DNA of 51,277 nt, from the IMG/VR virus record IMGVR_UViG_2851955134_000001, one strand, 5' to 3'. Both the position numbers and the translations under genes were made by a program. A model generated the notes under the pieces. The model did not search any database. It was not told the DNA's origin and saw only the letters and a list, made by a program, of their open reading frames with translations. Of this stretch, positions 27,582 to 29,021 are shown one piece after another (position 1 is the stretch's first letter; every line of letters begins with the position of its first letter). Source of the DNA: a virus. Taxonomy: Duplodnaviria; Heunggongvirae; Uroviricota; Caudoviricetes.

Positions 27582-28031
27582 CTATTTAATTAGTGATGCT
27601 GCGTATTCGATTAGATATAACTTAGGTGCCAGCCAGATTTTTAACCATGTCATATTGGTTACTGCACAAATAATAAAAATCCCCCACATAGTCAAAACTC
27701 CAACCAATGGCACGATAAGAAGATTAATATCACCTTTGCTATCCCAAACCATTGTCGGCCTGTATTTGGGATTTCCCTTCTCCCATGAATATCCTTCATC
27801 ACCGATTTTACCTGTCTCAACTCTTTGGCACTGCTTCTTCATAAACCAGAAAACCAGAGGGATTGTTGAAATGGCTATTAATGTTTTAATCAGGCTATCA
27901 ACCATATTCCATACCAGCAACTGATGAACAACATCCGGAATCTGAGCCTGACTGAATGCAATGGCGGAATCAATTCCATCGCTGGCCTTCTGCAATAAAT
28001 CAACAAGAATTTTATTTTCTTCTTCTTGCAT
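27582..28031 (-). CDS. small membrane protein (2-3 predicted TM helices), unknown function; second gene of a two-gene moron
   Basis: ATG at 28031 (the track ORF begins at an upstream TTG); hydrophobic stretches LIKTLIAISTIPLVFWFM and INLLIVPLVGVLTMWGIFIICAV; AT-rich. Confidence 0.5.
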   Translation of the reverse strand: MQEEENKILVDLLQKASDGIDSAIAFSQAQIPDVVHQLLVWNMVDSLIKTLIAISTIPLVFWFMKKQCQRVETGKIGDEGYSWEKGNPKYRPTMVWDSKGDINLLIVPLVGVLTMWGIFIICAVTNMTWLKIWLAPKLYLIEYAASLIK

Positions 28032-28154
28032 GTTTATATCCTGTAAGTTGTAAGCCTGTTCGAAAAAAACAAACAACTACGAGAGACAGAAAAAATATCT
28101 CAGGCTCTCTTTCTATAAGCTTTTAGTTGAGGATGTTCTGCAAAACAAAACTGG

Positions 28155-29021
28155 TTAGTTATGTAACTGCTTCCGGAATACAACAGCCGACGAGCTACAA
28201 CGTAAAATTCGTTTGATTGTGGCAGTTGAGGAAACAGATTTGCATTTCTCAATATCATCAATGATGACCACATCCGGTACAGGCATGATGCGGGTATGCA
28301 ATGTTTTTGCACTAATAACATCACAGCCATTCAGTGGTCGAATATCTGCATCTTCAGGCACTACCAGAAGCACACGTTTCTCCGGTGCAGAAAAGCCAGC
28401 AGCAAGAGTTCGCGACAATAAAGTCATTCCACTACGTGGTTTCATACAGATTTCAGAAATATGATTCTTTTCGTCCAAATGATGCTGAACATCACTTTTA
28501 TCATCACTCAACAACTCTGCTGTTAATACAACCCCTGCTGTCTCAGATTTCCAGGAAATACTGATATCCTGATCATCTGCATCTGCATCAACATCATATT
28601 TCATCGAGTAAGGACTAAAGCTACGTCCAACGAACGTATCGTTTACCAGTATACGCCCCCCCTGTCTGACCTGAAAGTCAACGCGCCCTGAAAGCTGATT
28701 TACTGTTACAAGCAATGCCTTTTTTCTTTTTGTTTTATTACTCATTGCCACAAACTGTTCAGCCATCTCTCTTGTCACACTACCAGAAACTCTTTCTTGA
28801 ATTTTCACAGTAAAATTTCTGGATGTAGTAGCATCGACATTAAAAAATCTGGATGTCATCAGGCAGTTATTAACAATTGGCATCAGCTCACTTACGATTG
28901 TAAAAAATTCCCGGTAAAGCTCATTTTGCTTTTCAACACACAGCTTTCCACAATCGTCCAGCTTACGCTCAAGAGCACTTAACCTTTCCATTATTGAATT
29001 AATTTTTTGCAACTCTTTCAT
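28155..29021 (-). CDS. uncharacterised ~288-aa protein with N-terminal coiled-coil; first gene of a two-gene moron
   Basis: ATG at 29021 preceded by AGGAGG RBS; no motif recognised; AT-rich codon usage unlike neighbouring phage genes. Confidence 0.55.
   Translation of the reverse strand: MKELQKINSIMERLSALERKLDDCGKLCVEKQNELYREFFTIVSELMPIVNNCLMTSRFFNVDATTSRNFTVKIQERVSGSVTREMAEQFVAMSNKTKRKKALLVTVNQLSGRVDFQVRQGGRILVNDTFVGRSFSPYSMKYDVDADADDQDISISWKSETAGVVLTAELLSDDKSDVQHHLDEKNHISEICMKPRSGMTLLSRTLAAGFSAPEKRVLLVVPEDADIRPLNGCDVISAKTLHTRIMPVPDVVIIDDIEKCKSVSSTATIKRILRCSSSAVVFRKQLHN

Follow-up and report, generated by a model that had tools for sequence, protein, structure and literature searches.

Whether two adjacent genes in the accessory slot of a lambdoid prophage form a dedicated defence system, or have come to lie side by side without any shared task, is the question raised by gene 1 and gene 2, which are located between Rz/bor and cos in a 51,277-nucleotide stretch of viral DNA (IMG/VR record IMGVR_UViG_2851955134_000001; hereafter the window, meaning this stretch at its full length). 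The initial annotation of this DNA had described them as a candidate phage-defence or abortive-infection system, in which a cytoplasmic sensor would act through a small membrane effector, organised like the RexA/RexB pair of lambda. The interpretation we favour, with moderate confidence, is that they are two independent accessory genes (morons) of the late operon that are adjacent by chance and make up no dedicated two-component system. Both are members of catalogued, uncharacterised PHROG families located in the Rz-cos slot and, on present evidence, they are not a new defence system.

The existence of the two co-oriented genes was confirmed, since both are intact open reading frames (ORFs) and the Prokaryotic Genome Annotation Pipeline (PGAP) calls the same two ORFs as 'hypothetical protein' in a near-identical prophage of Escherichia coli AR_0085, whose copies of the two genes show 100% identity to those of the window. 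The claim that they are uncharacterised also stood. Sequence-profile searches of Pfam, NCBIfam, and PDB gave no match for either protein, PADLOC-DB v2.0.0 returned no family at E <= 1, and no annotated PHROG matched either of them. Gene 1 is covered from residue 1 to 288 by phrog_2571 (E 2.8e-157; profile positions 1 to 291 of 291), and gene 2 from residue 1 to 149 by phrog_3054 (E 2.4e-60; profile positions 1 to 137 of 137). Neither family has an assigned function, and a literature search for the identifiers phrog_3054 and phrog_2571 found no mention of them. Homology to a structural or housekeeping phage protein was found for neither protein.

To hold as a system, the two genes should be conserved together across prophages, a check that had been set beforehand; the pair splits wherever divergence or recombination tests it. 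Gene 1 was detected in 35 of 5,426 complete E. coli genomes, full-length in 28 and truncated in 7 (one of the full-length copies is annotated as two ORFs, a possible frameshift). The pair was found only among these 28 near-identical copies, whose gene 1 sequences share at least 95.7% DNA identity; the linkage between the genes is therefore a matter of recent common descent, not of conservation. The slot itself occurs in four states, with both genes, with gene 1 only, with gene 2 only, or with deleted remnants. Gene 1 stands alone in its most divergent homologue (P0009; 78% amino acid and 84% nucleotide identity), which lies between Rz and Nu1 in a slot that lacks gene 2 and is too small to hold it. 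Gene 2 stands alone in the same slot of strain DG341-1, where it is 99.6% identical to that of the window and gene 1 is absent. At the DG341-1 junction, window positions 29062 to 29033 are joined to 28088 across a 4-nucleotide microhomology (TGTC). Since the hairpin that precedes gene 1 is thereby joined directly to the gene 2 leader, the 944-bp gene 1 cassette is cleanly absent from this strain. Finally, the 7 truncated copies of gene 1 are deletion remnants that have lost gene 2 as well.

Outside this slot, gene 2 was repeatedly found without gene 1. Homologues with 80 to 89% DNA identity lie alone in the pL operon of H10407, SLK172, and SC418, in the order N-(sieB)-ral-X-ea10-cIII, where X is the gene 2 homologue, and their homology to the window is limited to the ORF (28031 to 27583). 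The phages HF4s, Oslo, and CUS-3 likewise have a solitary homologue in their pL operon, behind N or ral, with homology to the window again limited to the ORF, and the 322-amino-acid coil protein encoded beside the HF4s homologue was unrelated to gene 1 by BLASTP. The start codon of the homologue overlaps the N stop codon (ATGA) in a Cronobacter prophage and the Rz1/LysC stop codon (ATGA) in Pantoea stewartii prophages. These overlaps suggest translational coupling to the host operon; the window has an untranslated spacer instead. Virulent phages carry gene 2 homologues as well, among them phi92 (gp220), the N4-like phage SP-076 (in its early region), and Vibrio phages; in Vibrio phage 120E34-1 the homologue is a lone inverted gene between the tail-completion and head-closure genes. 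Because nearly all family members are solitary, gene 2 most likely works without gene 1.

The alleles of gene 2 point in the same direction. The copy in the window is a chimera, in which residues 1 to 67 correspond to the late-slot allele of PhiR46_1 and residues 68 to 125, comprising the loop and the second transmembrane helix, to the pL-type allele. The differences between gene 2 alleles are concentrated in this loop and helix, and gene 1 is unchanged alongside the swap. Overall, the proposal of a sensor/effector unit is not supported by these comparisons: the pair is confined to near-identical copies, each gene occurs alone elsewhere, and the gene 2 allele has been exchanged independently of its neighbour.

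As a family, gene 2 is much better represented than gene 1. It comprises 498 clusters across Enterobacteriaceae, tblastn matches were found in 181 phage records, and 151 complete E. coli genomes carry a full-length copy (216 carry any match). The initial annotation had allowed two or three transmembrane helices; two were found, at residues 46 to 64 and 104 to 125 by Kyte-Doolittle hydropathy, and the C-terminal third helix is amphipathic, not membrane spanning. The segment ahead of the first transmembrane helix is invariant at F26, P32, V34, Q37-L38-L39, and W41 across Escherichia, N4-like Salmonella, and Vibrio phages and phi92, and the segment after the second helix is invariant in the same phage groups at I132, A135-P136-K137, L140, E142, A144, and L147. 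The loop between the helices varies in both length and sequence. With two transmembrane helices, the two conserved segments must be on one and the same face of the membrane, and the number of positive charges speaks mildly for a loop in the cytoplasm. Foldseek against BFVD gave no match for gene 2. The ratio of nonsynonymous to synonymous substitution rates (dN/dS) was 0.10 to 0.17 in most pairs and 0.47 to 0.51 when the PhiR46_1 allele was set against the window-type allele (two comparisons). As judged from these ratios, gene 2 is a real gene under purifying selection, and phrog_3054 is a broad, sharply conserved family of two-helix membrane proteins of about 130 to 150 amino acids that travels as a single-gene cassette.

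Where virulent phages carry gene 2 there is no lysogen to defend. Given this carriage, together with the usual early lytic position beside ral and sieB in temperate phages, the beneficiary of gene 2 is most likely the phage during infection and not the lysogen. The protein would insert in the inner membrane of the infected cell and act there alone. What it might do can be put forward tentatively: it could condition the envelope of the infected cell against the entry of further phage DNA or against membrane damage, as in superinfection exclusion of the T4 Imm type, a role that we regard as possible and somewhat doubtful.

Gene 1, on the other hand, is essentially restricted to Escherichia, dispensable, and often decaying. 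The family has 15 clusters at 90% identity, and every cluster with a named source is from Escherichia. Beyond the E. coli genomes, it was present in two phage records, and an exhaustive HMMER search of 1.84 billion representatives returned one full-length cluster plus three weak matches to its central beta domain (P0144 to P0146). The protein has no transmembrane segment. The N-terminal coiled coil that had been noted is plausible insofar as helices are predicted there (residues 2 to 23 and 29 to 57), and is unproven at a predicted local distance difference test (pLDDT) score of about 60. The C-terminal domain appears RecA/flavodoxin-like and has no intact Walker A motif: GxxxxGK[ST] is absent, the closest sequence being KPRSGMT, in which Met replaces the catalytic Lys and the first Gly is missing, and no Pfam NTPase family matches gene 1. 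Foldseek against BFVD gave only weak helicase-like and thymidine-kinase-like matches. With dN/dS values of 0.21 to 0.24 and length differences among homologues that are in-frame insertions or deletions, gene 1 is, by the substitution pattern, also a real gene under purifying selection.

The central beta domain is the part of gene 1 with wider relatives. A profile search with this domain recovered 60 clusters of stand-alone proteins of about 74 amino acids from E. coli, Salmonella, and Providencia, which are encoded directly after Rz. In E. coli O55:H7 CB9615 the start codon overlaps the Rz stop (ATGA), and in Salmonella prophages the gene likewise follows Rz directly. By hhalign, the beta domain matches the post-Rz ORF of DG341-1 (L020:3389-3658) with a probability of 99.7%. 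The stand-alone proteins align with positions 100 to 172 of phrog_2571 and belong to no Pfam family, and they may represent an unstudied small protein that is co-translated with the spanin. Since the beta domain is shared, gene 1 is an elaborated, lineage-specific version of this common small post-Rz protein. It would share the role of the latter, with helical and alpha/beta domains added. Some relatives show other combinations. One member of the 74-residue family (P0182) is fused to DUF1737. Moreover, the C-terminus of the DUF1327 protein of the window (31114 to 31425, minus strand), …EARYTIKINGSDNSIAGF, recurs almost exactly inside P0144, a protein of 181 amino acids whose N-terminus corresponds to the gene 1 beta domain; small late-operon proteins thus undergo domain shuffling.

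Next, the expression signals of the two genes were considered. Both had been credited with a strong ribosome-binding site of their own, which is true of gene 1 (AGGAGG, 5 nucleotides ahead of the ATG) and not of gene 2, which has the weaker AGGA, 7 nucleotides ahead of its ATG. A promoter scan found no sigma-70-like site above chance upstream of gene 1, upstream of gene 2, or in the spacer between them. The hairpin ahead of gene 1 is terminator-like with a poor T tract, and it is kept ahead of gene 2 where gene 1 is absent. The stem-loop that follows gene 2, which is retained in deletion variants, probably marks the 3' end of the gene 2 cassette or serves as its terminator. Both genes are co-oriented with S-R-Rz and with the head genes. 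In lambda, everything between Rz and the head genes is read through from pR' under Q antitermination. Late lytic expression is most likely here too, because the genes are co-oriented with the late operon, no promoter is detectable, and a hairpin precedes gene 1; the bulk of both proteins would then arise at the late lytic stage, from pR' transcripts extended by Q antitermination.

Several points weigh against two independent genes, or against the role suggested for gene 2. In complete E. coli genomes, gene 2 adjoins each of the 28 intact copies of gene 1, and a functional partnership specific to this lineage is still conceivable. The genes may possess promoters that escaped our crude scan, and expression from the prophage is common among AT-rich morons. 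The structure models are of low confidence, with a pLDDT of 57.5 for gene 1 and 66.5 for the AlphaFold2 model of gene 2. As for exclusion, the whole basis of the suggestion is the size of the protein, its predicted membrane location, the early or late lytic expression contexts, and neighbours such as ral and sieB, and hhalign shows no homology of gene 2 to SieA or SieB (probabilities of 0.5% for P22 SieA, 0.3% for lambda SieB, and 0.1% for P22 gp17).

A partnership could also be accommodated by assigning gene 1 a subordinate part. PHROG 3054 would then be a widespread single-protein inner-membrane exclusion or membrane-protection factor acting via its terminal motifs, with gene 1 recruited as a lineage-specific modulator in the N15-like/lambdoid lineage. 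We consider this unlikely, and the same grade applies to the scope that it would have, namely phages, temperate and virulent alike, that infect Enterobacteriaceae, Vibrio, Pseudomonas, and Ralstonia.

The position of both genes just downstream of S-R-Rz raises the possibility that the two families are accessory lysis proteins, which would tune holin timing, spanin action, or envelope disruption. The homologues of the beta domain that overlap the Rz stop in E. coli O55:H7 or directly follow Rz in Salmonella would suit such a role, as would the Pantoea stewartii homologue of gene 2 that overlaps the Rz1/LysC stop. However, the gene 2 homologues sampled mostly follow N or ral in the early pL operon or, in virulent phages, belong to an early region; neither protein matches a Pfam family, those of holins included; lambda and many other lambdoid phages do without both genes; and the deletion variants appear to survive as prophages and as phage-like plasmid records. 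We therefore give lysis a rather small chance. For gene 2 in particular, assignment as a holin or antiholin was rejected as the principal interpretation, as most sampled copies are early and one is translationally coupled to N.

About as improbable is a role of gene 2 as an early counter-defence or host-takeover factor directed at a membrane-associated host function or immune effector, with gene 1 as unrelated cargo. In many prophages gene 2 has the anti-restriction gene ral as a neighbour and cIII, kil, and gam downstream of it; virulent phages, too, carry it in their early regions, and the conservation of its terminal motifs across distant hosts suggests a conserved partner. Nevertheless, no homology to known anti-defence proteins was found, and late-operon positions such as that in the window fit less well. 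The gene 2 motifs were also absent from the text-form supplements of the accessory-gene screen of Silas et al. 2025, a weak negative limited to that part of the material.

The Rex-like system, in which gene 1 would sense infection and activate gene 2, the membrane would be depolarised, and the cell would be killed, is less probable again. It draws on a gene order and protein sizes that resemble those of RexA/RexB, on the presence of one soluble and one membrane protein, on the AT-rich accessory slot, and on the adjacency of gene 2 to every intact gene 1 copy. Against this, hhalign gave a probability of 0.2% over 13 aligned columns for gene 1 with lambda RexA and of 0.1% for gene 2 with lambda RexB, the latter in agreement with the initial annotation, which had seen no resemblance to RexB; gene 2 has two transmembrane helices, and PADLOC gave no match. 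Each gene occurs alone elsewhere, the 123-nucleotide spacer leaves them uncoupled, and the gene 2 allele was swapped without a change in gene 1. Moreover, gene 2 occurs widely among virulent phages, and in Cronobacter an ATGA overlap couples it to N, which would be a lethal spot for a constitutive killer. Finally, that the two are decaying, non-functional ORFs in a recombination-prone spacer is very improbable: deletion has truncated 7 of the 35 gene 1 copies, direct repeats flank the genes, an IS5 element adjoins them, and the AR_0085 integrase is frameshifted, whereas dN/dS is 0.1 to 0.24, the gene 1 length differences are in-frame, and the gene 2 motifs are invariant across Escherichia, Vibrio, and phi92-like phages.

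The DNA of the window belongs to a lambdoid prophage, whose gene order reads along the minus strand. In this direction, Q, a DNA methyltransferase gene, the holin gene, the gene of the DUF1327 protein, the lysozyme gene, Rz, and bor/iss (plus strand) precede gene 1, and gene 2 is followed by an insertion sequence (IS) of the IS5 family, ylcI (plus strand), cos, Nu1, terminase, and the head genes. The positions of bor/iss, Rz, the cosN-like site, and Nu1 agree with the accessory slot between cos and bor recognised in the initial annotation, and this slot is variable. The 12-nucleotide cosN-like match is by itself not above chance, and its support comes from its position. The AT-rich character that had been noted was borne out as well, with a G+C content of 0.401 in gene 1 and 0.387 in gene 2, compared with 0.518 over the whole window. 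An Rfam scan of positions 24500 to 30500 gave no credible match. The coordinates of these features are collected below; the IS5/ISKpn26 copy, the direct repeats of about 175 bp, the spacer, and the cosN-like site were not part of the initial annotation.

Features of the gene 1-gene 2 locus and its surroundings, in positions of the window
Feature	Position	Strand	Basis and remarks
Gene 1	28155-29021	-	ORF; 288 amino acids, soluble; PHROG 2571
Gene 1 layout (predicted)			N-terminal helices, residues ~1-95; beta domain, ~99-172; acidic/His-rich linker; C-terminal alpha/beta domain, ~188-283
Gene 1 central beta domain (residues ~99-172)	28506-28727	-	Homologous to stand-alone post-Rz proteins of ~74 amino acids
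Spacer between gene 1 and gene 2	28032-28154	-	123 nucleotides; no translational coupling; folding ordinary (z -1.3)
Gene 2	27582-28031	-	ORF; 149 amino acids, two transmembrane helices; PHROG 3054
GC-rich hairpin, 8 bp with 6 G-C pairs	29044-29063	-	Terminator scan and fold; just upstream of the gene 1 ribosome-binding site
Strong stem-loop	27517-27581	-	Directly after the gene 2 stop; minimum free energy -26.8 kcal/mol, z -5.7, 0 of 200 shuffles as stable
bor/iss lipoprotein gene	29437-29730	+	ORF and PGAP 'Iss'; upstream slot boundary, opposite to the late operon
Rz	29762-30238	-	ORF
IS5-family element (ISKpn26-like, 1195 bp)	26318-27512	-	Inverted repeat, PGAP; transposase ORF 26464-27444
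cosN-like site GGGCGTCGACCT	25683-25694	-	1 mismatch to lambda cosN; ~210 nucleotides upstream of Nu1; downstream slot boundary
Nu1	24961-25470	-	ORF/PGAP
Direct repeat, upstream copy, ~175 bp	29078-29255	.	Repeat search, 81-95% identity; blastn cross-matches
Direct repeat, downstream copy	26093-26267	.	Same repeat; adjoins ylcI/ynfO

The IS5/ISKpn26 copy is flanked by TTAA target duplications (26314 to 26317 and 27513 to 27516). It is inserted 65 nucleotides past the gene 2 stop, in the stretch that leads to ylcI/cos, and leaves both ORFs intact; PhiR46_1 and DG341-1 are without it. Such an insertion would break late read-through toward cos and the head genes. The gene 1-gene 2 module would be excised if the two copies of the direct repeat recombined, and the stretch that holds the upstream copy is about 88% similar in DNA to lambda-like phages. 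In the AR_0089 variant, the downstream repeat copy sits upstream of the gene 1 remnant, suggesting that such exchanges occur; there, 104 gene 1 codons are left and are joined to cos-proximal sequence. Another remnant, in pPEC1013-3, lacks window positions 28431 to 27605 and retains a gene 1 remnant of 198 amino acids and no gene 2. The near-identical prophage of AR_0085 has an integrase by tRNA-Ser/mtfA that is annotated as frameshifted, so that this prophage may be unable to excise, and its annotation also has hokD, a QueH homologue, and a DNA methyltransferase upstream of the holin.

Many carriers of gene 1 are plasmid records (14 of the 35 gene-1-bearing E. coli records), mostly of about 46 kb with a range of 36 to 75 kb, and at least one of them is annotated as linear. 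PhiR46_1 (PV340565.1) has a telL site, an ORF of 633 amino acids at the position of the protelomerase, and a primase of 1,331 amino acids, which together identify it as an N15-like linear plasmid prophage. The PhiR phages, PhiR46_1 included, are said to stem from the work of Brenes & Laub, published in Cell Host Microbe in 2025. Telomere phages thus appear to be the main home of the module, which the integrated prophage of the window probably acquired by recombination.

A new Rex-like pair would, if real, have extended the repertoire of defences borne by prophages, and the evidence argues against it. The case carries a caution for the mining of defence systems, namely that a soluble protein and a small membrane protein in a moron slot do not amount to a system if the pair is found only in near-identical elements. 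The gene 2 family is of interest in its own right, as it is found again and again as a single-gene cassette at two preferred sites, just after N and just after the spanins, and also in virulent phages. It makes a tractable target for phage membrane biology, with one gene to clone, clear motifs, and many natural alleles.

Among known systems, RexA/RexB shares with the present genes similar sizes (279 and 144 amino acids, compared with 288 and 149 here) and an order in which the gene of the soluble protein comes first and that of the small membrane protein second. RexB is generally described with four transmembrane helices, whereas gene 2 has two. RexA/RexB sit in the immunity region by cI, whereas gene 1 and gene 2 are in the late region between Rz/bor and cos, more than 12 kb from the regulator genes as measured in the near-identical AR_0085 prophage; gene 1 and gene 2 are, in addition, separable. 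T4 Imm, P22 SieA, and SieB of lambda and P22 differ from gene 2 in that no hhalign relationship links it to SieA or SieB, and T4 Imm is likened to it by description only. Gene 2 resembles them as a small phage inner-membrane protein encoded by a single gene in temperate and virulent phages, and its homologues adjoin sieB and ral in several prophages. The morons of the lambdoid Rz-cos region, such as lambda bor, lambdap78, and lambdap79 and the DLP12 genes ybcV/ybcW, occupy the same slot between lysis cassette and cos. In this slot lambda carries other ORFs, and lambda and many lambdoid phages are without gene 1 and gene 2; the stretch of the window that is similar to lambda at the nucleotide level stops upstream of gene 1 and enters neither gene. 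Unlike bor, which is divergent, gene 1 and gene 2 run in the direction of the late operon and have no detectable promoter of their own. With these morons they have in common an AT-rich composition, a variable presence among related phages, and, after gene 2, a strong 3' stem-loop, and it is by this variability of the slot and deviant base composition that the two genes can be recognised as morons.

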